A stretch of DNA of 64,000 nucleotides, taken from contig CAVVKJ010000010.1 of assembly GCA_963748815.1 (NCBI GenBank), positions 352,001 to 416,000 of the forward strand, in the 5' to 3' direction. Made by a program: the position numbers and the translations under genes. This document shows, one piece after another, positions 47,503 through 57,925 of this stretch. Source of the DNA: an uncultured Gemmatimonadales bacterium (GTDB lineage: Bacteria > Gemmatimonadota > Gemmatimonadetes > Gemmatimonadales > GWC2-71-9). Position 1 is the first letter of the stretch; every line of letters begins with the position of its first letter. Under the pieces are notes generated by a model. That model made no database searches. It saw only the letters and a program-made list of their open reading frames with translations, and was not told the origin of the DNA.

Positions 47503-49101
47503 TCAGTCGAGGGCGACCTGCCGGACGGCCGTTACCTCGGGTAGGGCGCGGAGCTGTTTCACGACGGCAGGGCTCAATCGGGCGTCGACACCGATGGCCG
47601 CGAGGGCCTCTCCCCCCGCCTCGAGCCGGGCTACGTGATACTGGCCGATATTGATCGTCGCGGCGGCCAGCGCGGACCCGACCCGGCCGATGACGCCCGG
47701 GACGTCCCGGTTGCGGAGCAGGATGAGGTCGCCCCGGGGGTGAATGTCGACGTGGTAGTCGCCGATGCGGACGACACGCGGGTGGGCGCCCTCGAGCACC
47801 GCCCCTCCCACGCGAAGGGTCTCCCCGTCGCCGGTCAGGCGCACCTCGAGGTATTCCGCATAGTCGTCGCGCGGACTGAGCCGGGTGCGCTCGACGGCAA
47901 TCCCCCGCCCCGTGGCGAGGTGCATCGCGTTCACGACGTTCACCGCGCCGTGTCCCAGGACCTCCGACAGCACGCCGATGAGCGCCGCCGCCGCGATCGG
48001 CCCCAGTCCGTCCTCCTCACGCCCCGCGTACCGGACCTGCACCGTCTTCAGCGGCGCCGCGGTGAGGGTCGCGCCGATCCGGCCCAGCCGCTCGGCCAGG
48101 TCGAGCAGCGGCCGGAGCCGGCGCATCCGATCCCCGCCCACGCCCGGGGCGTTCACCGCCCGGCTGAGGTCGCCGTCGAGGAGCGCGGCGCGCACGGCCG
48201 CGGAAATCTCAAGCGCGACGTTCTGCTGCGCCTCCTCGGTCGAGGCGCCGAGGTGGGGCGTGAGGACGGCGTTGTCGAGCGACCGGAAGGGGTGGTCCGC
48301 GGGCAGCGGTTCGACGGTGTAGACATCGAGGCCCGCGCCGGCGATCGCCCCGGTGCCGAGGGCATCGGCGAGCGCCCCCTCGTCGATGATCTCTCCGCGG
48401 GCGACGTTCAGGACGATGGCGCTCGACTTGAGCTTCAGCAGCTCGGCCGCGCCGATCAACCCGGCCGTGGCATCGGTCAACGGGACATGGACGGACAGGA
48501 CGTCCGCCTGCCGCAGCACCTCGTCCAGCGTGCCGAGATCGGCGCCGAGGGACTTGGCGCGGTCGGGCTGCAGGAAGGGATCGTAGATCAGCACGCGCAT
48601 CCCGAAGGCCCGGGATCGGGTGGCGACCTCGCCGCCGATCCGACCGGCGCCGACCAGCCCGAGGGTCTTGCCGTAGAGCTCGCCGCCGCCGAGCTTGGCG
48701 CGGTCCCACGCCCCCGCCTTCATCGACCGATCGGCCGCGGCGACCCGTCGCACGACGGCCAGCATCAGCGCCATCGTCAGCTCCGCCGCCGAGATGGTGT
48801 TGCCGGCCGGGGCGTTCAGCACGGCGATGCCCTTCTCGGTCGCCGCGTCGACGTCGATCGTGTCGACGCCCACGCCGGCGCGGCCGATCACCTTGAGGCG
48901 GGTGGTCGCTTCCAGGGCCGCCCGCGGCACCTTGGCCGCGCTCCGGACGATGACGGCGTCCACCTCGGTGAGCGCCTGCGTGAGGTCGGCGAGGCTCAGC
49001 CCCGGCTTGGTGATCAGTTCGAACCGCGGGTCCTCGCGCAGCGGGGCGAGGCCGTCGGCGGCGATCTTGTCGGCGATGAGGACGCGGAAGGTGGCGGTCA
49101 T
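47503..49101 (-). CDS. serA: D-3-phosphoglycerate dehydrogenase (with ASB and ACT domains)
   Basis: IGRAGVGVD, NAPAGNTISAAE, GAGRIG, HVPLT, NVARG, TPHLGAST.EAQ, N.DVPGVIG. Confidence 0.95.
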   Translation of the reverse strand: MTATFRVLIADKIAADGLAPLREDPRFELITKPGLSLADLTQALTEVDAVIVRSAAKVPRAALEATTRLKVIGRAGVGVDTIDVDAATEKGIAVLNAPAGNTISAAELTMALMLAVVRRVAAADRSMKAGAWDRAKLGGGELYGKTLGLVGAGRIGGEVATRSRAFGMRVLIYDPFLQPDRAKSLGADLGTLDEVLRQADVLSVHVPLTDATAGLIGAAELLKLKSSAIVLNVARGEIIDEGALADALGTGAIAGAGLDVYTVEPLPADHPFRSLDNAVLTPHLGASTEEAQQNVALEISAAVRAALLDGDLSRAVNAPGVGGDRMRRLRPLLDLAERLGRIGATLTAAPLKTVQVRYAGREEDGLGPIAAAALIGVLSEVLGHGAVNVVNAMHLATGRGIAVERTRLSPRDDYAEYLEVRLTGDGETLRVGGAVLEGAHPRVVRIGDYHVDIHPRGDLILLRNRDVPGVIGRVGSALAAATINIGQYHVARLEAGGEALAAIGVDARLSPAVVKQLRALPEVTAVRQVALD

Positions 49102-50187
49102 GCGGCGAGCACCTCCTCGAGCGCCGTCAGCACCCGCTCCAGTTCCGGGAGGGTGTGCTCTCCCATGTGGCCGATGCGGATGGTGGAGTCCTTGAGCTTG
49201 CCGTAACCGGCGGAGATGGTGATCCCCTTCGCCTTCATCGCCGCGTTGACCTCGCCACCCAGCTTGCCCGGGGGCACGCGTCAGGCAGGTCACCGTCCAC
49301 GACCGGTACCCCTCCGGAGCCAGCACGCGCACGGGTACACCGCGCGCCGTCATCGCGTCGGCCCAGGCCCAGGTGCGCCTGGCCATCGCTTCGTGCCGCG
49401 CCCAGCGGGCCGGCATCGTTTCCGCCTCCATGCGCTCGAGCTGTTGCGCCAGCGCGTAGAGCAGCGAGAGCGCCGGCGTGTTGGGCGTCTGGTTCTTCAG
49501 GGTGAACTTCTCGAATTCGAGGAAGTCGAAGTAGATCCCCCGGCTGCGCTGCGCGGCGGCCCGCTCGAGGATGTTGGGCTGCGCCACGCCGAAGGCGAGC
49601 CCGGGCGGAAGCGCAAACGCCTTCTGCGAGCCGGTCAGCACGAAGTCGAGATTCCAGGCGTCGCTCTCGACGGGCACACCCGCCACGCCGCTGACGCTGT
49701 CCACCAGCAGCACGACGTCGCCCGCGGCGTGCGCCGCCTTGGCGAGTTCGGCGACGGGATTGAGCGCGCCGGTCGAGGTCTCGGAGTGCACGACCGTCAC
49801 GGCGTCGTAGTTGCCGCCCTTGAGCGCCTCGAGGAGACGCGCCGGGGTGTGGACGTCGCCCCACTCCACGGCGAGCGCGTCCGCTTCGAGCCCGCAGGCC
49901 AGCGCAATCTTGTGGAACCGGTCGCTGAAGGCGCCGTTGACCAGCGACAGCACGCGCTTCCGCGCGCCGTTTCGGAGCGCCCCCTCCATCAGGCCGGTGG
50001 CGGAGGAGGAGGAGATGTAGACCGGGCGCGCGGTGCGGAACACCCGCTGCAGCGCCGGCTGGATGCGGGCGAGGAGCTCTTCCATCCCCTTGCCACGGTG
50101 TCCGATCATCGGGCGGGTCTGGGCGGCGAGAACGTCCTCGGTCACTTCGGTGGGGCCTGGAAGGAAGAAGCTGCCGAACGGTGCCAT
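49098..50187 (-). CDS. Class V PLP aminotransferase (AGAT/SerC-like), with a 1-nt frameshift near 49278
   Basis: PGPT, GHR, HSETSTG, VDSVS, GSQKAFALPPG, PNTP; the shifted frame gives GYGKLKDSTIRIGHMG...VLAA* overlapping the serA ATG. Confidence 0.88.
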
Positions 50188-50253
50188 GTTGGGGCTCGCA
50201 GGTGGGGGCGGAAAAAGTCGACGGCGTAAGATAGGCGGCGCGAAGCTAAAGAA

Positions 50254-50916
50254 TCAGCCCGGGTCCGTGTGAAGAACCTCGGCGAGGACCGGGAGGAGCG
50301 ACGGGGACCGGATGACGGCGTCGGCGGCCCCGGTCACGGCCGTTCGGTCCACGACCCCGGCATACGCCACGAACCGGTCGACGGCCGGGCGGGCCTCGAG
50401 GTCGGTGATGCCGTCGCCGACCATGAGAATCGGCCCGGGGAGCGCGCTCCGCCACGCCTCCACGACGGTGCGCTTTCCGCCGGAGCGGCTGAGGGGCGAC
50501 GCCTCGTCGTAGCCGGCATAGCTCCCATCGGCGTGGAAATGGAGATCGACGGCGGCAACATGATCCGCGGCGAGCCCGAGCCATTCGGCAAAGGGAGCGA
50601 TGGCCGGCCGGAGCCCGCCGGAGAGGATCCGCACCTCGACGCCGTGGGCGCGGAGCTGCTGCACCGTCTCCCTCGCGTCCGGGACCGCCGCGGCGATGTA
50701 CTGCGCCGCCAGGGCGTCGACGGCGGCCCGGGTCGGGCGGATCAGCGCGAGTCGCTGGCCGTAGACCGCCTCCAGGGAGACCTCGCCCCGCATGGCGGCG
50801 TCCGTGAGCGCGGCGATGGCCTCGCGGTGGCCGGCGGCGAGTTCGTCGATGCCCTCGATGGCGGAGAGGGTGGAGTCGCAATCGAAGATGACGGTCCGGA
50901 ACCGGGGTGTGGCCAT
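50254..50916 (-). CDS. serB: HAD-IB phosphoserine phosphatase
   Basis: FDCDSTL..IEGIDELA, T..AM.G, SGG, GK, VGDGITD; clustered with serA. Confidence 0.85.
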   Translation of the reverse strand: MATPRFRTVIFDCDSTLSAIEGIDELAAGHREAIAALTDAAMRGEVSLEAVYGQRLALIRPTRAAVDALAAQYIAAAVPDARETVQQLRAHGVEVRILSGGLRPAIAPFAEWLGLAADHVAAVDLHFHADGSYAGYDEASPLSRSGGKRTVVEAWRSALPGPILMVGDGITDLEARPAVDRFVAYAGVVDRTAVTGAADAVIRSPSLLPVLAEVLHTDPG

Positions 50917-50922
50917 CCGGCG

Positions 50923-51840
50923 CTAGTTCCGACGCAGCGCGACGTCGTCGCTGCGGACGTTGCGGCCGATGACCAGGACCAGGAGGCGCGGCTCAAAGCC
51001 GGGGGCGCTCACCCGGACGTACTGGGTACGGCACTGGTCGAGGAGGGATGCGTCAAAGGTCAGGACGTATTCCCCGTTCTGGTCGGTGAAGGTGGTGAAC
51101 GAGGTGCCGATGATCTGGAGGTGGGCGTTCGGCATCGGTGCCCCGCCCTGCACCATGAGCACGCGGCCGCTCGCCGATCCCATCCGCGGCTCCCCCGGCT
51201 TGGTCGAATCGGGCATGACCGTCGGGCACTCCTCGGCGCCCGTGTCCGGCATCGACTGTTTCCAGGGGCGCGGATCGCGCGGGGCCATCCCCAGGCGTGG
51301 GCCCAGCTGGATGCCCCCGGGGGTGCCGGAGGAGGCCGGGGCCGAGGTCGGTGCCGGCTCGGCGGGTGAGGGGGCTGACGGCCCCGGGTTCAGGGCCAGC
51401 GGCATGGGCCGCGGCGGCGCGATCTTCGGCTGATTCGCCTCGGCGCCGTCGCCCAACCTGGTGGCGTCGCCGCCCGGATCCGCCACCGGCGAACGAATGG
51501 CACGGATCGGATCGGCTTGCGGATCGGGATTCTTTTCCTCGCCGCCGGATCTCGGAGCTGGAAGTGGTGGCGGCTTTGGCGGCCGGCGCCGCCTCAGGGG
51601 GGCGCGCGGCGGGAGGCAGGTACACCATGCGTACCTGTCGCTTCTGGAGCTCCTCCCGGGCGGCCTGAATCTCTTCGGGGGTGGCAGTGTTGTCGGGGTG
51701 GTGGCGGAACTCGGTCGTCGCTGGATCCACATCCCTCCCAGGATGAGGACGGCGTAGATGGCCAGCGAGATTGCCATGCCTTGCCAGCGCGGCTCGGGTC
51801 GTAGCGGTGGCGTGAGCGAGAACGCCCTGTTGGCAGGCAT
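50923..51840 (-). CDS. Membrane-anchored Pro-rich protein with C-terminal carboxypeptidase-regulatory-like domain
   Basis: One N-terminal TM helix, Pro-rich linker, SGRV...G.P..NA...IGT....TDQNGEY.L; possible internal compensating indels. Confidence 0.65.
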   Translation of the reverse strand: MPANRAFSLTPPLRPEPRWQGMAISLAIYAVLILGGMWIQRRPSSATTPTTLPPPKRFRPPGRSSRSDRYAWCTCLPPRAPLRRRRPPKPPPLPAPRSGGEEKNPDPQADPIRAIRSPVADPGGDATRLGDGAEANQPKIAPPRPMPLALNPGPSAPSPAEPAPTSAPASSGTPGGIQLGPRLGMAPRDPRPWKQSMPDTGAEECPTVMPDSTKPGEPRMGSASGRVLMVQGGAPMPNAHLQIIGTSFTTFTDQNGEYVLTFDASLLDQCRTQYVRVSAPGFEPRLLVLVIGRNVRSDDVALRRN

Positions 51841-51876
51841 CAAAGAAATATAACCCCATATGCGACAGCATGTTGC

Positions 51877-53253
51877 TTACGTGGTGTGCCCGTGGTCATC
51901 GATGATGACGCGTCCCATGCGGGCCTGCAATCGGTGCCGGACCCTGCCGAGCAGGATGACGGCGACCGCCGCCAAACCGAACACAAGCCCCCACCAGAGA
52001 CCGCGGGCACCCATGCCCGCCTGGAAGCAGAGGAAGAGGCCTGATGGAATACCTACGATCCAGAAGCCTATCACGTTGATGATCATGGGCGACCGAGTGT
52101 CGCCGAGCCCCCGCAGGACCCCGCCAGCCACGACCTGGATCCCGTCGAACACCTGGAAGATGCCGGCCAGCGGGAGGAGTGCGGCGGCCATGACCAGGAC
52201 GGCATCGGCGTTGGTGTAGAGGCCGGCGAGCGAACGCGGAATGGTCAGGAAGAGCGTCGCTGTGATGAGCATGAAGGTCGCGCCGACCATGAGGGCGGTC
52301 CGGGCGGAGCGGCGGGCGCCGAGGGGGTCGCCCCGGCCGACGGCCTGGCCGACGAGGACCGCGACCGCGGCGGAGACGCCGAGGGGCACCATGTAGGTGA
52401 GGGAGGCGAGATTCAGCGCCACCTGGTGTCCCGCCATCTGGTTGGTCCCGAGGCGGCCCATCATCACGCCGGTGAGGCCGAAGGCGCCGTACTCCAGCTC
52501 GAACTGGGCACCGATGGGGGCGCCGAGTCGGAGCATGCGCCCGAGCGGGGCAAGCCGCAGCACCTCGGGTCGGATGGGGAGGAGGTGATGCCGGAGTGCG
52601 GGCCAGCTGAGCCCGAGGAGGACGAGCGCCATGACCCACCGGCTGCCGGTGGTCGCGATGGACGATCCGGCCACGCCGAGGGGCGGCACGCCGAGATGTC
52701 CGTAGACCAGGATCCAGTTGAGGAAGACGTTCAGCAGGTTGGCGGCGACGATGGTGATGACGATGGCGCGCAGCCGGCCCATCGCCTGCAGCGTCTGGCG
52801 CAGGACGGCGTAGACGAGGAACGGCAGGACGCCGGGAATCACGAGCCGGGCATAGGTGGCGGCGAGGGGCACCACGTCGGCGGGTTGCTCGAGCCACTGA
52901 AAGACCGCCCCGGCGGGCCAGAGGAGTAGCATCGCCGGAATGGAAAGGAAGAGGGCGAGCAGCAACCCGCGCTGGACGCCGCGCGCGATCGCGGCGTCGT
53001 CCCGGGCGCCGACGGCCTGGGCAATGATGGGGTCGAGCCCCATCAGGACGCCCATGCCGAAGATGGCCACGGCAAAGAAGTAGAGGTTGCCGAGGGCGAC
53101 GGCGGCGAGGGCGGCGGGCGAGACGTGCCCTACCATCAGCGTGTCCACCACGCCCATGAGCATCATCCCCACCTGGACGGTGACGACCGGCACCGCCAGC
53201 GTGAGGAGCGCCCGCAGTTCTTCACGGGTCGGGAGGAGGGACAGGGTCGACAT
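51877..53253 (-). CDS. MATE family efflux transporter (NorM-like)
   Basis: LA.PV, VDT.MVGH, N.LN..LNW.L.YG, G.AG..IAT, LG.PIG, HQ.ALN, FQ.FDG.Q....G.LRG.GDT. Confidence 0.92.
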   Translation of the reverse strand: MSTLSLLPTREELRALLTLAVPVVTVQVGMMLMGVVDTLMVGHVSPAALAAVALGNLYFFAVAIFGMGVLMGLDPIIAQAVGARDDAAIARGVQRGLLLALFLSIPAMLLLWPAGAVFQWLEQPADVVPLAATYARLVIPGVLPFLVYAVLRQTLQAMGRLRAIVITIVAANLLNVFLNWILVYGHLGVPPLGVAGSSIATTGSRWVMALVLLGLSWPALRHHLLPIRPEVLRLAPLGRMLRLGAPIGAQFELEYGAFGLTGVMMGRLGTNQMAGHQVALNLASLTYMVPLGVSAAVAVLVGQAVGRGDPLGARRSARTALMVGATFMLITATLFLTIPRSLAGLYTNADAVLVMAAALLPLAGIFQVFDGIQVVAGGVLRGLGDTRSPMIINVIGFWIVGIPSGLFLCFQAGMGARGLWWGLVFGLAAVAVILLGRVRHRLQARMGRVIIDDHGHTT

Positions 53254-53276
53254 GGAAACCGGCAAAGGGAGTGGGA

Positions 53277-53350
<74 letters not shown>

Positions 53351-53493
53351 GCGATCCGTGGCGGCGTGGAGCGCTGTATGATAGTGTGCTGCCGTGCGAA
53401 CCGACAGCATCCGGGGTCGGCGCCGGGGAAACCTCCACTGCCGTCCGCCCGTACGGCCCCTGTCCCACGTCACCACACCTCACGGAGGCCCCG

Positions 53494-54243
53494 GTGCTCG
53501 TTCTGTCACTGACGCTCGCCCTGCTCACGGTTGCCCCCTCGGCGGCTCCCCTGCCCGATCCAGTCACCGGCGCGGAGGTGATCCGGATGATGCAGGCCAA
53601 GTACGCGGGCAAGTGGTACCAGACGCTGACCTTCGTCCAGGCCACCAAGCACGCCGACGGGTCCGTGGAGACGTGGTACGAGGCGATGCGGGTGCCGGGC
53701 GCCCTCCGGATCGACATCGCTCCGCTCTCGGCGCAGAGCGTCATTCTGTTCCGCAACGACTCCATCTACCGCTACGTGGGCGGCGAGCTCAAGCTGGCCC
53801 GCCCGCTGGTGCATCCCCTGCTGCTCCTCGGATTCGACGTCTACGGCCAGCCGCCGGAGAAGACGATCGCCACGCTGAATGGGCTGGGATACGACCTGTC
53901 GAAGGTGCGGAGCGGCAGCTGGCAGGGACGAAAGGTCTGGATTGTCGGGGCGGCGGCGGGCGACAGCACGACGACGCAGTTCTGGGTCGACCAGGAGCGG
54001 CTGGTGTTCGTGCGGAGCCTGGGAACGAATCCGCAGCGGCCGGGGGTCGTGACGGACGTGCAGTTCAACAAGTTCATCAAGGCGGGCCACGGCTGGATCG
54101 AGACCGAGGTGCTCTTCCTCGAAAATGGGGTCGTCACGCTGACCGAGGAGTACCGGGACGTGAAGGCGGACCCGACGCCGGCGCTCAACCCGGCCATCTT
54201 CGAACCGGGGGCCTACCTGGCGCCGGGGTGGGTCACGGAGTAG
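53494..54243 (+). CDS. Exported protein, possibly LolA-like fold
   Basis: GGAGG SD then GTG, signal peptide, WY.TLTF.Q, TWYE....PG.LRID, QFW.D.E.L. Confidence 0.7.
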   Translation: MLVLSLTLALLTVAPSAAPLPDPVTGAEVIRMMQAKYAGKWYQTLTFVQATKHADGSVETWYEAMRVPGALRIDIAPLSAQSVILFRNDSIYRYVGGELKLARPLVHPLLLLGFDVYGQPPEKTIATLNGLGYDLSKVRSGSWQGRKVWIVGAAAGDSTTTQFWVDQERLVFVRSLGTNPQRPGVVTDVQFNKFIKAGHGWIETEVLFLENGVVTLTEEYRDVKADPTPALNPAIFEPGAYLAPGWVTE

Positions 54244-54259
54244 CAGCCAAACCCGGTAG

Positions 54260-54288
54260 TTGCGCTCCGGGAGGGACTTAGGTACCTT
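54260..54288 (+). promoter_or_regulatory. Putative sigma70 promoter for csp, giving a leader of about 215 nt
   Basis: TTGCGC-17 nt-TACCTT. Confidence 0.4.
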
Positions 54289-54509
54289 TGTTCAGCGGTC
54301 GAAGCACGTATACGCGGAATGATTCCGAGTGAACGTTGGGGGCCCGGCTGCATGCTGTGGCCCCCCTTTTGTTGCCGAGACCGTTGGGAGCGACCGGGGA
54401 TGTCCCTGGCGCTGTCGCACCACCCTTCCCGTGAGGGCTTGTCACGGGGCAGTAGAAGTCGGTATACACGGCAACGCCGCGGTCCGATTCAAGAATATGG
54501 AGTACAGCA

Positions 54510-54722
54510 ATGCGTACCACCGGAACGGTGAAGTGGTTCAACGATGCGAAGGGCTTTGGATTCATCACTCCCGAGGGGGGCGCGAAGGATTGTTTCGTGC
54601 ACCACTCCGCCATCAGCGGCAGCGGCTTCAAGTCGCTGGCCGAGGGTGAAAAGGTGGAGTTCGATGTGGTCCAGGGCGCCAAGGGCCCGGCGGCCGAGAA
54701 CGTTACCCGCGCGGCTTCCTAA
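54510..54722 (+). CDS. csp: Cold-shock protein
   Basis: GTVKWFN..KGFGFI (RNP1), FVHHSAI (RNP2), GFKSL.EG, KGP.A.NV; GGAG SD. Confidence 0.96.
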
Positions 54723-55665
54723 GCACGGGCACACGACAGCTCTTGGACTGCATGGCGGCATGCCACATGTGCGGCGCGCCGACCGGCACCAGCAGGTTGA
54801 CGCGGTTGAACCGCTGCAGGATGGAGAAGACCGCGGTATGCGCCGGATCGGGGGCGGGCATCCCCTCGCTCCGCCCCGCCGCCTCCGGTTCGAAGGTCGG
54901 GTCGAGCTGGTACTCGAACCCCTCGCCCGGGAAGAGGGTGGCCAGCTGCCGGAGATCGGCCAGCGGGATGGGCGGCGGCACCGTCCGCAGCGAGATGAAC
55001 TCTTTCACGTTTGTCTTGTACACCGGGCGCTGTTTCCAGGGCCCGAGCGACTGGTCGATGTGGGCGTACACGCTGCCCGGCGTGATCTCCCCGGCCAGGT
55101 TCGCCGCCGCGCCGCTCAGCGCATCGACGAACAGCGTGGTGAAGACACCCCGGCCCCCGCTCTCCTTGGCGATCTGCGCCGTCGTGGCGGCCGTGAGAAT
55201 CGACATCCCATCCGACAACTGGGCGGTATCCTGTCCGGACAGGTTTCCCGCGACCCCCGAATGGCAGCTGTCGAGCACGATGATCGTGTTGCTCGACTTC
55301 GACCGATAGGCCAGCGTCATCACCTCCGAGAGCGCCAACCCCTCGTCCCCCTGCAGCGTGTCGCTGGAACAGAGGTAGCCTCCGCCGGTGTCCTCCACGT
55401 TGCCATGGCCGGCGTAATACAGCAGCGCGATCTCGTTGTCGTCGGCGAACAATTCGGTGACGGCCTTCTTCAGGTCGCGGCGGGAGATCGTCTCATCGGC
55501 GGTGCTCGCGGTCTGGAGGCGGACCGCGAAGTTCGGCGACCCGTCCCCGTGGGTCTCGAGGATCGTGGCGACCGCCTTGGCGTCGTTCACGCACCCGCTC
55601 AAACTGGGATAGTTGGGGAACTGGTAGTAGTCGATCCCGATGACAAGTGCCTTCCTGCGTCCCAT
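54703..55665 (-). CDS. Caspase-like (peptidase C14) protease, type IV Thoeris effector-like; C-terminus apparently truncated
   Basis: [30 protein letters not shown] (His), VLDSCHSG (Cys), GVFT..FVDAL.G, W.QRP..KTN, HMWHAAM.SKSC. Confidence 0.88.
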
Positions 55666-55702
55666 CCGCGCGTCCTCCCAAAGTGTGGTGTGCCCCGTTC
55701 GG

Positions 55703-57214
55703 CTAGGTCGCGGTCGGCGCTTCCGGCTGCAGGAGCGTCTTGCGGATCTTCTCGAAGAAGTCCGGCGTCTGGTCGACGATGCTGGTGTCCAGGTGCGAAT
55801 AGATGGTCGGGATGGCGGTGACGGTGGTCGCGACCGGGAGCAGCCCGAGCTTGCCGTCCATCTTGCGCTTGTAGGCGAGGTCGATCTCGTTCCGGCAGTG
55901 GTTCTTCCCGTAGTACTCGGGCGAGAAGACCGGCAGCACGAAGCGCGAGTCGACGATGGCCCACATGTACTTGGTCGTGAAGGGCTCCCCGATGCTGATC
56001 GATTCCCGGTCAAAGTAGATCGAGAGCGGCGTTCCGTCCGCCTTCCGCAGCGCCTTGAGCGGCTCCAGCAGGTTGGCCGCGACCCAGTCGTATTGCTGCC
56101 GGGAGTAGCTGATGAAGACATCGTACTGGCCGCTCCCCTCGGCCATCCCGGTCACCAGGAACTTCAGCGCGAAATGCGCCGCCAGGAACGCCGCGACCGC
56201 GATCGCCACGAGGGTGAGCCCCACCGGCGTGGCGAAGCCGAGCTGCCGGCCCGCGGCGGCGAGGGCTGCGAGCGCCGCCGCCGACAGGGTGCCCGACAGG
56301 ACGGCGGTGAGCCGTGGTGTGGTCTGAAGCCGCTTGACGTACTGGAAGAGCAGCGCGAAAATGGCGGCCGTGAGCGCGCCAAACACCAGGATCTGGGCGA
56401 GGAGGAGGACGGGCCGGTTATTGGGCTGGGGGACGCCCTCGGGAGTGAGCAGGGCGCTGAACGCCGACGCTACGACGAGCGGGCCGGCGACGGCCACCTG
56501 CCCCGGGCGATCCTCGTCGAGGCTCCCCACCAGCACAATGGCGTCGGCAAGGTCGAGGCCGGTCGTGTCGGCTCCCCGCAGGAACCGGCCGCCGGAGGTC
56601 ATGCCCGGCGCGTGCTCGAAACGCCAGGTCTGGGCGTTGATGGCCGATGAATCGGCCAGGGGTAGCACCAGGGACGCCCCGGTGGGGGGCGGCGTCCGGT
56701 TCCGGTCCGTGACGACCTTCACGGCCAGGGCCATCAGCGACATGCGCGAATCGTCGGGCAGTTTCAGTTCCAGCTTCGTGTCGTAGCTCAGCACGCCCAT
56801 GAACGGCGCGTTGATCTGGGTGTGGCCATAGCCGGTGAGATGTTCCTGGTAGAGGCTGGCCGCCTGATCCTCCCACACTTTCTCCCACGGGAGCAACATT
56901 CCACCGCCGCTCGCTTCCTGCGGGTCCACCACCGCATACACCGCCACTTCATTGCGCACGAGCGAGTCGACCGCCGCGGTCAGTTCGGCCAGCCCCCGCG
57001 CGTCGCTGGAGAACACGACGTCGAGCGCGACCGCGTCGGGGTGCCGCTGGCGGGCGGCGAGGTTGTTCAAGAGGTCGGCGAGCCGGAGCCGGAAGTCGGT
57101 CGGGTCGGCGTGGTCGCTGGCCGTGCGGATGCGGGGCACGTCGACCAGCACGATGCCGGGGGAGAACGGAATATTCTTTGGCAGGTAAAACCGGTGGTAG
57201 ACGGCGTAGTCCAC
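55703..57214 (-). CDS. CHASE2-like sensor, three TM helices and TIR domain; true 5' end probably lies further upstream (about 57300) and is frameshifted
   Basis: IVLVDV, LADLL..L....[18 protein letters not shown] (CHASE2-like); three hydrophobic helices; [28 protein letters not shown]....HCRNEI (TIR with catalytic-type Glu). Confidence 0.82.
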
Positions 57215-57325
57215 CCTGCGCCAGATGCCGGTCAGGGCGGCGAACGCCGAGACCGCAGTCGCAGGATGAATGCAGCCGGTCCGACGTCAGTCGGGCCGGC
57301 TGTTTTCGTTGGGGCGTGTCGCCCT

Positions 57326-57925
57326 TCAGAACACCGTCAATCCGACCCCGAACCCGACGTCCCACTGCGTCATGTTGCCGCCCGCCGGGAAGAATCCATA
57401 CGCCGTCGCGTCGTCCTGGTGCGCGTACTGCACGAACGCGAACGGCGCGATGCCGAGGTTGCCCATCGAGAGGTCGATCCCCACGCCGAACTGCGCGCCG
57501 AAGCCGTGGGCCTCGCTGCTGCGGACGCCATCGGCATCCTTCGAGCCGAGGTACTTCGAGCTGCCCGCCCCTCCCTTCACGAACGCACCGGAGGTGGGCC
57601 AGGGGTACCAGGCGACGGTCAGGAGGATCAGGGAGATGTCACCCTGGTTGCCCTGTCGGCTGATGGAGCCGAGTTCGAAGCCGACGGCCACGGCCGGCCA
57701 GGCATACCCGCCGACGAGATTAAAATTGGAGGCGATGCCGGCACCGGTGAACCGGCAGGAATCACAGGACTGGTCGAGGTTGCTCATCCCGAACGTCGCG
57801 CGGCCCCACAAACCGCGGGGGCGGAGCTGATCCTGGGCCATGGCAGTCGAGACGGAACCGAGGATGAGGCCGGCCAAGAGGCCGGTGAACACCGCGGCCC
57901 GGGCGATGCGGGCTGGTGGCCTCAC
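57326..57925 (-). CDS. Outer-membrane beta-barrel protein
   Basis: Signal peptide ending AMA-Q, alternating Gly/aromatic strands, C-terminal GVGLTVF with terminal Phe. Confidence 0.75.
   Translation of the reverse strand: MRPPARIARAAVFTGLLAGLILGSVSTAMAQDQLRPRGLWGRATFGMSNLDQSCDSCRFTGAGIASNFNLVGGYAWPAVAVGFELGSISRQGNQGDISLILLTVAWYPWPTSGAFVKGGAGSSKYLGSKDADGVRSSEAHGFGAQFGVGIDLSMGNLGIAPFAFVQYAHQDDATAYGFFPAGGNMTQWDVGFGVGLTVF

Follow-up and report, generated by a model that had tools for sequence, protein, structure and literature searches.

A probable receptor-TIR variant of the type IV Thoeris operon in Gemmatimonadales and its eroded copy in a metagenome-assembled genome

Can the cell envelope trigger bacterial TIR signalling? 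The question is raised by two genes in a 64,000-nucleotide stretch of Gemmatimonadales DNA (contig CAVVKJ010000010.1; the whole stretch is hereafter called the window), where a predicted extracytoplasmic sensor-TIR protein occupies the slot beside a caspase of a family proven to be TIR-activated. The window (G+C content 0.69) comes from a metagenome-assembled genome (MAG) of 3.16 Mb in 19 contigs that is 86% complete; because this genome is partial, genes missed by our searches of it are given as not found and not as absent. A sequence-only reading had described two adjacent minus-strand genes separated by 37 nt, the second preceded by GGAGG, and this arrangement was recovered as open reading frames (ORFs) at 55703-57214 and 54703-55665. 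The motifs HCRNEI, YAGHG and DSCHSG and the caspase's C-terminal extension that it had quoted are likewise present, and Pfam and hydropathy confirmed the TIR domain, the C14 caspase and the three transmembrane (TM) helices. The best explanation of the locus, which we hold as a whole with moderate confidence, is that in Gemmatimonadales a type IV Thoeris operon has exchanged its short ThsB TIR for a receptor TIR, and that the five-gene accessory island so formed survives in the window as a recently eroded copy.

The second gene of the pair (54703..55665, minus strand, ATG at 55663-55665) encodes a caspase of 320 amino acids (aa) that Pfam, PADLOC, alignment and tree together assign to the family of ThsE, the type IV Thoeris effector. 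Pfam matched Peptidase_C14 over aa 3-217 (1.2e-17, 64.8 bits against a cut-off of 21.4), the PADLOC 'caspase' model matched at 3.3e-18, and metacaspases were among the matches in a comparison with solved structures. His87 (YAGHG) lies at 55405-55407 and Cys134 (DSCHSG) at 55264-55266. No TIR or death-fold adaptor domain was found in the protein by Pfam or structure search. When the full-length caspase of L002, the corresponding locus of genome G138 from the same genus as the window, was used as the query, 6495 of the 8000 scored candidates matched at E<=1e-3, with hundreds of matches from many phyla being 61-66% identical across ~323 aa and P0121-P0127 being the closest caspases. In the caspase alignment (A2) mean column identity was 77%, the C-terminal 100 residues included, with His87 and Cys134 invariant. 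The caspases of the window's clade keep every invariant residue of the proposed signal-binding C-terminal domain, apart from the tail that the window copy has lost.

The gene neighbourhood of this family was analysed in 80 metagenome loci with close relatives of the caspase, 73 of which have at least 420 nt upstream, by clustering the neighbouring ORFs. In 59 of the 80 loci the gene immediately ahead of the caspase, on the same strand, encodes a ThsB_TIR protein (PF08937, 1e-7 to 2e-9) of 123-140 aa; another TIR_2 protein occurs in 8 loci, and one or the other type is present in 62. ThsE caspases can therefore be paired with no fewer than two unrelated kinds of TIR. A Glu ('WE') stands at position 79 in 13 of the 123-aa TIRs, and 20 of the 324-aa caspases have the DSCHSG Cys at position 129, to which Cys134 of the window is equivalent. 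These are the positions changed in the type IV Thoeris mutants PsTIR E79Q and PsCaspase C129A, which are reported in the available text of a preprint that also describes the caspase family as switched on by a nucleotide (Rousset et al., bioRxiv 10.1101/2024.10.24.620036). In a quick maximum-likelihood tree with midpoint root (75 rows, 300-345 aa after trimming to the start motif), the Gemmatimonadales caspases formed a clade with Shimodaira-Hasegawa-like approximate likelihood ratio (SH-aLRT) support of 99, sister (SH-aLRT 97) to caspases with a short TIR upstream. The suggestion that the protease resembles the type IV Thoeris effector was therefore upheld by the alignment, the 59 loci, the tree and the Glu79/Cys129 correspondence, and in the tree the window's clade stood beside caspases paired with short TIRs, its position relative to the Thoeris IV clade having been put forward as a test. 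Judged by its sequence, the window caspase is a member of the ThsE family.

Three further kinds of neighbour recurred in these ThsE loci. In 19 of the 80 loci the caspase gene is immediately followed by one for a protein of ~94 aa with a weak RyR match (PF02026, 2.4e-6 to 4e-4) (for example L070:5981-6265, L084:2066-2341 and L093:2115-2396, with 16 further metagenome loci); this protein may be a third component of type IV Thoeris-like loci. Upstream of the short TIR, three of the 80 loci encode a 286-aa protein (L082:3693-4550, L086:321-1178, L091:125-655) with a faint ADP-ribosyl cyclase match under the cut-off (PF02267, E 0.0056), and four encode a protein of ~1330 aa without a Pfam match ahead of the TIR and caspase (L119:330-4313, L135:48-4094, and partially L114 and L134). 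A tblastn search of the 80 loci with the L002 Trypco1 protein gave no match at E<=1e-3.

Next to the window caspase no PF08937 short TIR was found; its place directly upstream is filled by a CHASE2-like/TM/TIR receptor gene. The truncated receptor-TIR ORF (55703..57214, minus strand, GTG at 57214, stop codon at 55703-55705) encodes 503 aa with 93% identity to its L002 counterpart. Its predicted CHASE2-like extracytoplasmic domain (56411..57112, minus strand, aa 35-268) matched PF05226 at 4.3e-4 and is followed by three TM helices (56168..56410, minus strand, aa 269-349, by hydropathy), which correspond to TM2-TM4 of the intact protein. The TIR domain (55805..56128, minus strand) was recognised by Pfam as TIR_2 (PF13676, aa 366-470, 2.3e-12, 47.9 bits against a cut-off of 28) and as TIR (PF01582, 1.8e-7), and carries the catalytic-type Glu443 (HCRNEI) at 55886-55888; PADLOC matched PDC-S66 at 8.7e-11 and, faintly, ThsB (0.007). 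A spacer of 37 nt (55666..55702, minus strand) separates the TIR stop from the caspase ATG, with GGAGG 8 nt before the ATG.

The intact form of the island was found in L002 and in L003, a locus of the more distant Gemmatimonadales genome G401. In both, the gene order is a Ser/Thr kinase, a secreted FecR-like/TPR protein, the receptor TIR, the ThsE caspase and a convergent Trypco1/Pepco gene. The intact receptor has 533 aa and consists of TM1, the CHASE2-like domain, three TM helices and the TIR, and the receptor TIR and caspase genes share a strand and lie 37-55 nt apart in all three Gemmatimonadales genomes. Trypco1 (PF19493) was matched at 1.1e-17 in L002 and 2.3e-17 in L003, the match running to the last residue. 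DNA homology between the two loci is confined to L002 1011-3914 and 4389-8919, the flanks being unrelated, and their TIR proteins and caspases are 65% and 86% identical, respectively; the block thus appears to travel as a unit between genomes. The idea that a TM receptor replaces the cytoplasmic TIR accordingly applies to the intact L002 and L003, but not to the window copy, which is cut at both ends and has lost its partner genes. Between the kinase and FecR-like/TPR genes, L002:3684-4175 and the matching stretch of L003 contain tandem repeats, with 'GGTAPPDKGRE' in one frame; no Pfam match was found in the L002 repeat region.

The receptor family is larger than its pairing with a caspase. 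A profile of 50 members recovered 175 clusters (50% identity) at E<=1e-30, most of 520-580 aa and matched end to end, from Bacteroidota, Acidobacteriota, Betaproteobacteria and Gemmatimonadota. The closest homologues of the receptor, P0002-P0008, have 64-72% identity. Hydropathy of full-length members (L002, L003 and L009) gave one N-terminal and three later TM helices, a layout described for CHASE2 in the available part of PMC3501461; the window ORF lacks TM1. The CHASE2 assignment is backed mainly at the level of the family. The window and L002 proteins scored 20.4 and 22.8 bits, both under the Pfam cut-off of 26.3, but 16 of the 50 family members matched CHASE2 at E<=0.1 (best 7.6e-7), and CHASE2 was the sole recurring N-terminal Pfam family among them. 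The protein of locus L024 scored 28.2 bits. AlphaFold2 modelled the L002 receptor with a predicted local distance difference test score (pLDDT) of 88.8 and a predicted template modelling score (pTM) of 0.84, with helices at 298-322, 330-355 and 362-385. Its TIR domain was closest to that of Hydra TRR-2 among solved folds (Z 16.9, root-mean-square deviation 2.1, 123 aligned), followed by MAL (15.2), MyD88 (14.9), ThsB (11.9) and AbTIR (10.9). Foldseek and VIA-align searches with the whole receptor model returned only TIR domains among the top matches, and a fold search with the whole model of the FecR-like/TPR partner returned only TPR matches, so the CHASE2-like and FecR-like domains were barely probed by them. 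The Glu of 'HCRNE' is invariant in all 50 receptor members and aligns with the 'yEL' Glu of the BtTir and AbTIR TIR domains, which we take to be the catalytic residue. Two long relatives of the family were also seen, P0310 (1430 aa) and P0359 (1489 aa); the former matches the CHASE2-like and TM part alone, in its C-terminal residues 1091-1428, so the sensor module occurs on other proteins without the TIR.

The receptor's constant partner is the FecR-like/TPR protein rather than the caspase. A profile search found this protein in all 34 receptor loci (L002-L035); the hidden Markov model was built from 28 of them, the six remaining matches being independent, and among these L027 matched over the TPR part only. 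In most phyla the gene precedes that of the receptor, but in two Betaproteobacteria it follows it, and the N-termini of the partners are signal-peptide-like. The match to Pfam FecR (PF04773) is weak overall, with 3 of 28 partners at E<=1 (best 3.7e-8), and AlphaFold2 predicted a beta-rich domain at residues 39-171 (pLDDT 55-85). A complex prediction of the CHASE2-like domain (A4 residues 28-298) with the FecR-like/TPR protein (A3 residues 30-480) scored 0.00 in two runs without controls and carries no weight either way. An apparent fusion of the partner behind the TIR in L035 was rejected, the long frame being an out-of-frame overlap in GC-rich DNA; in L035 and L026 the partner gene lies downstream of that for the TIR, and its product has a signal peptide of its own. 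An operon that pairs a secreted FecR protein with a CHASE2 kinase is already known according to the available text of PMC5192318, and proteins of ~400 aa with PG_binding_1 adjoin the receptor pair in two Flavobacteriaceae loci (L007:4381-5592, L011:3445-4677). Viewed alongside the LysM-FecR proteins that accompany CHASE2 kinases in the accessible part of PMC5192318, these neighbours hint at a cell-wall cue.

Among the other neighbours of the receptor, CHAT/TPR-S proteins are encoded downstream in 4 of the 34 loci, all from Flavobacteriaceae. Three are Kriegella giants of 1816-1846 aa combining DUF7379, LCAT, CHAT and TPR-S (L004:7803-13343, L005:7792-13245, L006:7807-13254), and the fourth is a 632-aa CHAT/TPR-S protein of Pareuzebyella (L009:8458-10353) with a patatin also near. 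As far as domain content goes, we read this pairing as a second, independent link of the receptor to caspase-fold proteases. TPR-S domains may be sensors of TIR products. Our literature search found no paper joining TPR-S with TIR or with Thoeris, and the TPR domain in ThsI, as described in the available part of a preprint (bioRxiv 10.64898/2025.12.03.692087), bears on the idea indirectly. Stand-alone extra TIR genes lie upstream in L004 and L005, and other receptor loci have as neighbours a lipase, SLATT plus SIR2-TIR, or an LRR-TIR.

How might such an island work? The CHASE2-like domain and the FecR-like/TPR protein would jointly read a cue in the periplasm or envelope; the receptors would then cluster and bring their TIR domains together, which would turn NAD+ into a cyclic ADP-ribose-type signal. 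Binding of this signal to the C-terminal domain of the caspase would release broad arginine-directed proteolysis, the Trypco1/Pepco protein being perhaps among the substrates, and the outcome would be growth arrest or death. Pepco proteins (Trypco1/2) are described, in the accessible portion of a preprint, as pore formers unleashed by their protease (bioRxiv 10.1101/2025.11.14.688446). All steps of this scheme are inferred, including that an outside cue gates the TIR, that the TIR signals to the caspase through a nucleotide and that Trypco1 is a substrate. In its fullest form, which we put forward tentatively, the intact island would be an 'outside-in' Thoeris, in which the receptor and a periplasmic FecR-like/TPR co-sensor respond to what happens at the envelope, be it phage adsorption, damage to the cell wall or attack by a neighbour, and the TIR nucleotide fires the ThsE caspase, opening the Trypco1/Pepco pore. 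If true, this would be the first TIR immune sensor to read the cell exterior and not the cytoplasm, and a bacterial counterpart of animal receptor-TIR-caspase-pore signalling.

That the receptor TIR took the slot of the short ThsB TIR is supported by the shared operon position, the conserved block, the retained ligand domain of the caspase, the variety of ThsE partners and the CHAT/TPR-S pairing. Several observations weigh against it. The two genes had been expected to co-occur elsewhere, and they do in L002 and L003, but the caspase pairing is confined to 3 of the 34 receptor loci, all from Gemmatimonadales, and the receptor occurs in none of the 80 ThsE caspase loci. Likewise, in a sample of 401 genomes from the phylum the island with its caspase occurred in 2, counting that of the window, and among 60 relatives of G401 in 2. 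Trypco1 is convergent and not co-oriented with the caspase gene. By phmmer, the TIR domain of the receptor matched neither of the TIR types (c1 and c3) that usually accompany ThsE at E<=10, so nothing indicates that the receptor TIR produces N7-cyclic ADP-ribose, the molecule by which the TIR of the anti-phage type IV Thoeris activates its protease. Most of the 34 receptor loci have housekeeping neighbours and usually no protease; no ThsE-type caspase was found in the receptor-bearing genomes G402 and G403, and a third, G404, has only remote caspase domains with 32-37% identity.

The last of these points fit best with the strongest rival, which we consider unlikely though still a serious contender: the receptor TIR would itself be the effector, a sensor-gated NADase that depletes NAD+, and the caspase, which would exchange no signal with it, either an orphan Thoeris effector that came to lie next to it or part of a protease/Trypco1 module of its own. 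It is favoured by the receptor and FecR-like/TPR pair standing without a protease in most loci and in genomes without a ThsE-type caspase, by the lack of a phmmer relationship between the receptor TIR and the usual ThsE partner TIRs, and by Trypco1/Pepco being known as protease partners, as the available text of that preprint has it (bioRxiv 10.1101/2025.11.14.688446). Against it, receptor and caspase genes lie on one strand at such short spacing in three genomes, and the entire block is conserved between unrelated flanks. In addition, the window's genome, 86% complete, yielded no ThsB_TIR (PF08937) match as an alternative partner for the caspase, the caspase retains all invariant residues of the proposed signal-binding domain in A2, and four Flavobacteriaceae loci provide the independent CHAT/TPR-S link.

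It is improbable that the TIR is instead a scaffold that, as in animal Toll-like receptors, recruits or clusters the caspase by contact and without a small molecule. The closest solved folds are indeed those of animal receptor and adaptor TIRs (Hydra TRR-2, MAL, MyD88). Against this, the catalytic-type Glu that aligns with that of bacterial NADase TIRs never varies in the family, neither a TIR nor a death-fold adaptor domain was seen in the caspase, and its family is nucleotide-activated according to the available text (bioRxiv 10.1101/2024.10.24.620036). We therefore return to slot replacement as the preferred reading of the intact island, and the remaining question is what became of the copy in the window.

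Compared with the intact island, the window copy has two deletions. At its left edge stands a flank gene (57326..57925, minus strand; 199 aa ending ...GLTVF, no Pfam family) whose protein we read from its sequence as outer-membrane-barrel-like. It has 94% DNA identity to G138:C3:417297-417863 and lies ~6.5 kb from the TIR gene in G138 versus 71 nt in the window. These 71 nt form deletion joint 1 (57255..57325, unstranded), which separates the stop of the flank gene from the point where homology to the intact TIR gene begins; a strong hairpin within it (-33.1 kcal/mol) is probably the terminator of the flank gene. The deletion of ~6.4 kb relative to G138 took the 955-aa Ser/Thr kinase, the secreted FecR-like/TPR protein and the first ~16 TIR codons, with the start codon and TM1. 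The span given in the sequence-only reading extends to 57325; 57215-57325 is noncoding, with an in-frame stop at 57287-57289 and no ATG, GTG or TTG ahead of the GTG at 57214, and 24 codons without a start codon precede '...SAFAALTGIWRR', the N-terminal remainder kept in the window TIR gene. Intact TIR homologues of 520-555 aa open with a TM helix, 'M.TLKRLxxxLLxFVVL...AALTG', which the window ORF lacks. Survival of the 5' end of the window gene in another frame was considered and rejected: clear homology begins only at about 57275-57254, the alignment has a 5-nt indel near this boundary, and upstream of it nothing is convincing.

At the other end, blastn aligned L002 6000-8520 with window 57254-54734 (91%) and L002 8998-13548 with window 54734-50172 (83%). 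The two L002 segments abut at window 54734, and the 477 bp between them (L002 8521-8997, the last 18 caspase codons and the Trypco1 gene), which have no window counterpart, were therefore lost. At this deletion joint 2 (54703..54735, minus strand) the caspase runs into a new tail, VPVLRKPRG, and a stop, where the family has a nearly invariant 'LTxLGEHYRRLVxxKLI', and the Trypco1 gene of the relatives is gone. The foreign sequence makes up the final 10 codons of the ORF, and the ThsE C-terminal domain, the proposed signal-binding part, is incomplete in the window but whole in both L002 and L003. On its right side the island site is bounded by a cold-shock protein gene (54510..54722, plus strand; Pfam CSD 1.4e-30), syntenic with L002 and convergent with the caspase ORF, which it overlaps by 20 nt.

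With TM1 gone, either the sensor domain would lie in the cytoplasm or the TIR would face outward. Since TM1 and the start codon, the last helix of the caspase, the FecR-like/TPR protein, the kinase and Trypco1 have all been lost, the window copy is most likely inactive, a judgement from gene structure that we hold with fairly good confidence. Two findings argue against it: both window ORFs are free of internal stops and frameshifts, and in comparison with L002 the ratio of nonsynonymous to synonymous substitution rates (dN/dS) is low, at 0.136 (TIR gene) and 0.047 (caspase). Either the cuts were made recently, then, or selection still acts on the shortened proteins. On the reading of a recently eroded island, the window shows how fast such an island can decay.

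The break points were also compared with contigs of four public sequencing runs (X1-X4). An X2 contig tracks the window up to 57254 and then runs on into intact TM1 coding sequence; X1 and X2 contigs part from the window at 54734, where X4 continues like L002. None of the contigs of X1-X4 bridges either joint in the window form, which weighs against the erosion reading insofar as the joints stand on the assembly alone. That the truncations are assembly artefacts of a 19-contig MAG whose organism has an intact island is nevertheless very improbable, as both joints are clean with flank synteny retained on each side, neither the FecR-like/TPR protein nor Trypco1 (L002 query) was matched anywhere in the assembly, and a multi-kilobase collapse between non-repeated sequences would in our judgement be an unusual assembly error.

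Around the island site, four contigs from X1, X3 and X4 join window 54712-54722 to 57252-57273 and skip the 2.5 kb TIR-caspase segment; with sides of 29-39 nt and 90% likeness, they hint weakly that the site is empty in some relatives. The remnant (54734-57254) has 91% DNA identity to L002 with a synonymous rate (dS) of 0.30-0.34, and the flank (50172-54734) 83% with a dS of 0.57, which could reflect a more recent exchange of the island or merely different constraint. A tRNA-Arg(TCT) lies 1.35 kb from the island site (53277-53350, minus strand), separated from it by the cold-shock gene and a 372-aa ORF without a Pfam match. Further along, an 894-aa ORF (47503-50187, minus strand) reads as an aminotransferase and a D-3-phosphoglycerate dehydrogenase joined by an odd His/Arg/Gly-rich linker, and is possibly a frameshift or two genes merged in ORF calling.

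How does the island relate to known systems? The claim that the pairing is undescribed was sustained in part. Our full-text literature search, which covered papers and preprints without their supplementary tables, found no description of CHASE2 coupled to a caspase through a TIR, and none of the receptor family in the literature searched; but CHASE2-caspase fusions are already in print. A transmembrane TIR is not named in the Thoeris papers found. In their available text these describe TIR proteins as sensors of phage infection, none as a membrane receptor, and the accessible part of a systematic Thoeris preprint mentions transmembrane helices in effectors only. With type IV Thoeris the island shares the caspase family (61-66% identity, the His/Cys dyad, the C-terminal domain and the Cys equivalent to C129) and a TIR gene directly upstream on the same strand with a catalytic-type Glu. 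Type IV Thoeris has a cytoplasmic ThsB_TIR of ~123 aa, whereas here its place is taken by a receptor of 533 aa that has four TM helices, a CHASE2-like outer domain and a TIR from another clade (TIR_2, without a phmmer match to the usual partners), and the island adds the FecR-like/TPR protein, the kinase and Trypco1. Because the short cytoplasmic ThsB TIR, a defining feature, is missing, we class the island on its gene content as a variant of type IV Thoeris and not as a member; it offers a natural chimera for asking which TIR clades make a caspase-activating signal.

Fusions of CHASE2 to caspases, the Trichodesmium metacaspase-CHASE2 protein (PMC3501461) and EACC2-caspase-CHASE2 (PMC8195603), likewise combine, in the available descriptions, an extracytoplasmic CHASE2 sensor with 1+3 TM helices and a caspase-fold protease. 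Those are single polypeptides, whereas here a TIR and, putatively, a diffusible nucleotide stand between the sensor and a separate protease. The Burkholderia 'BiofilmReg' operon of FecR/LysM and a CHASE2 histidine kinase (PMC5192318) also encodes a secreted FecR protein next to a membrane sensor with CHASE2; in its accessible text, which does not mention TIR, the output is a histidine kinase and LysM is present, whereas here the output is a TIR, the partner has TPR and its FecR match is weak. As in the modules of a protease with a Pepco (Trypco1/2) pore protein (bioRxiv 10.1101/2025.11.14.688446), Trypco1 adjoins the protease gene in L002 and L003; the protease is Avs-fused in the modules as described in the available text, whereas the island has a ThsE caspase and a convergent Trypco1 without an evident C-terminal tail, a gene that is absent from the window. 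Finally, animal Toll-like receptors share with the island an outer sensor, a membrane span, a cytoplasmic TIR and a caspase downstream, and animal TIRs are the closest in fold. They have an LRR ectodomain, one TM helix and an adaptor chain, whereas the receptor here has a non-homologous CHASE2-like domain, four TM helices and what would be an enzymatic link to the caspase, and the resemblance is thus best regarded as an analogy of design and not as family membership.

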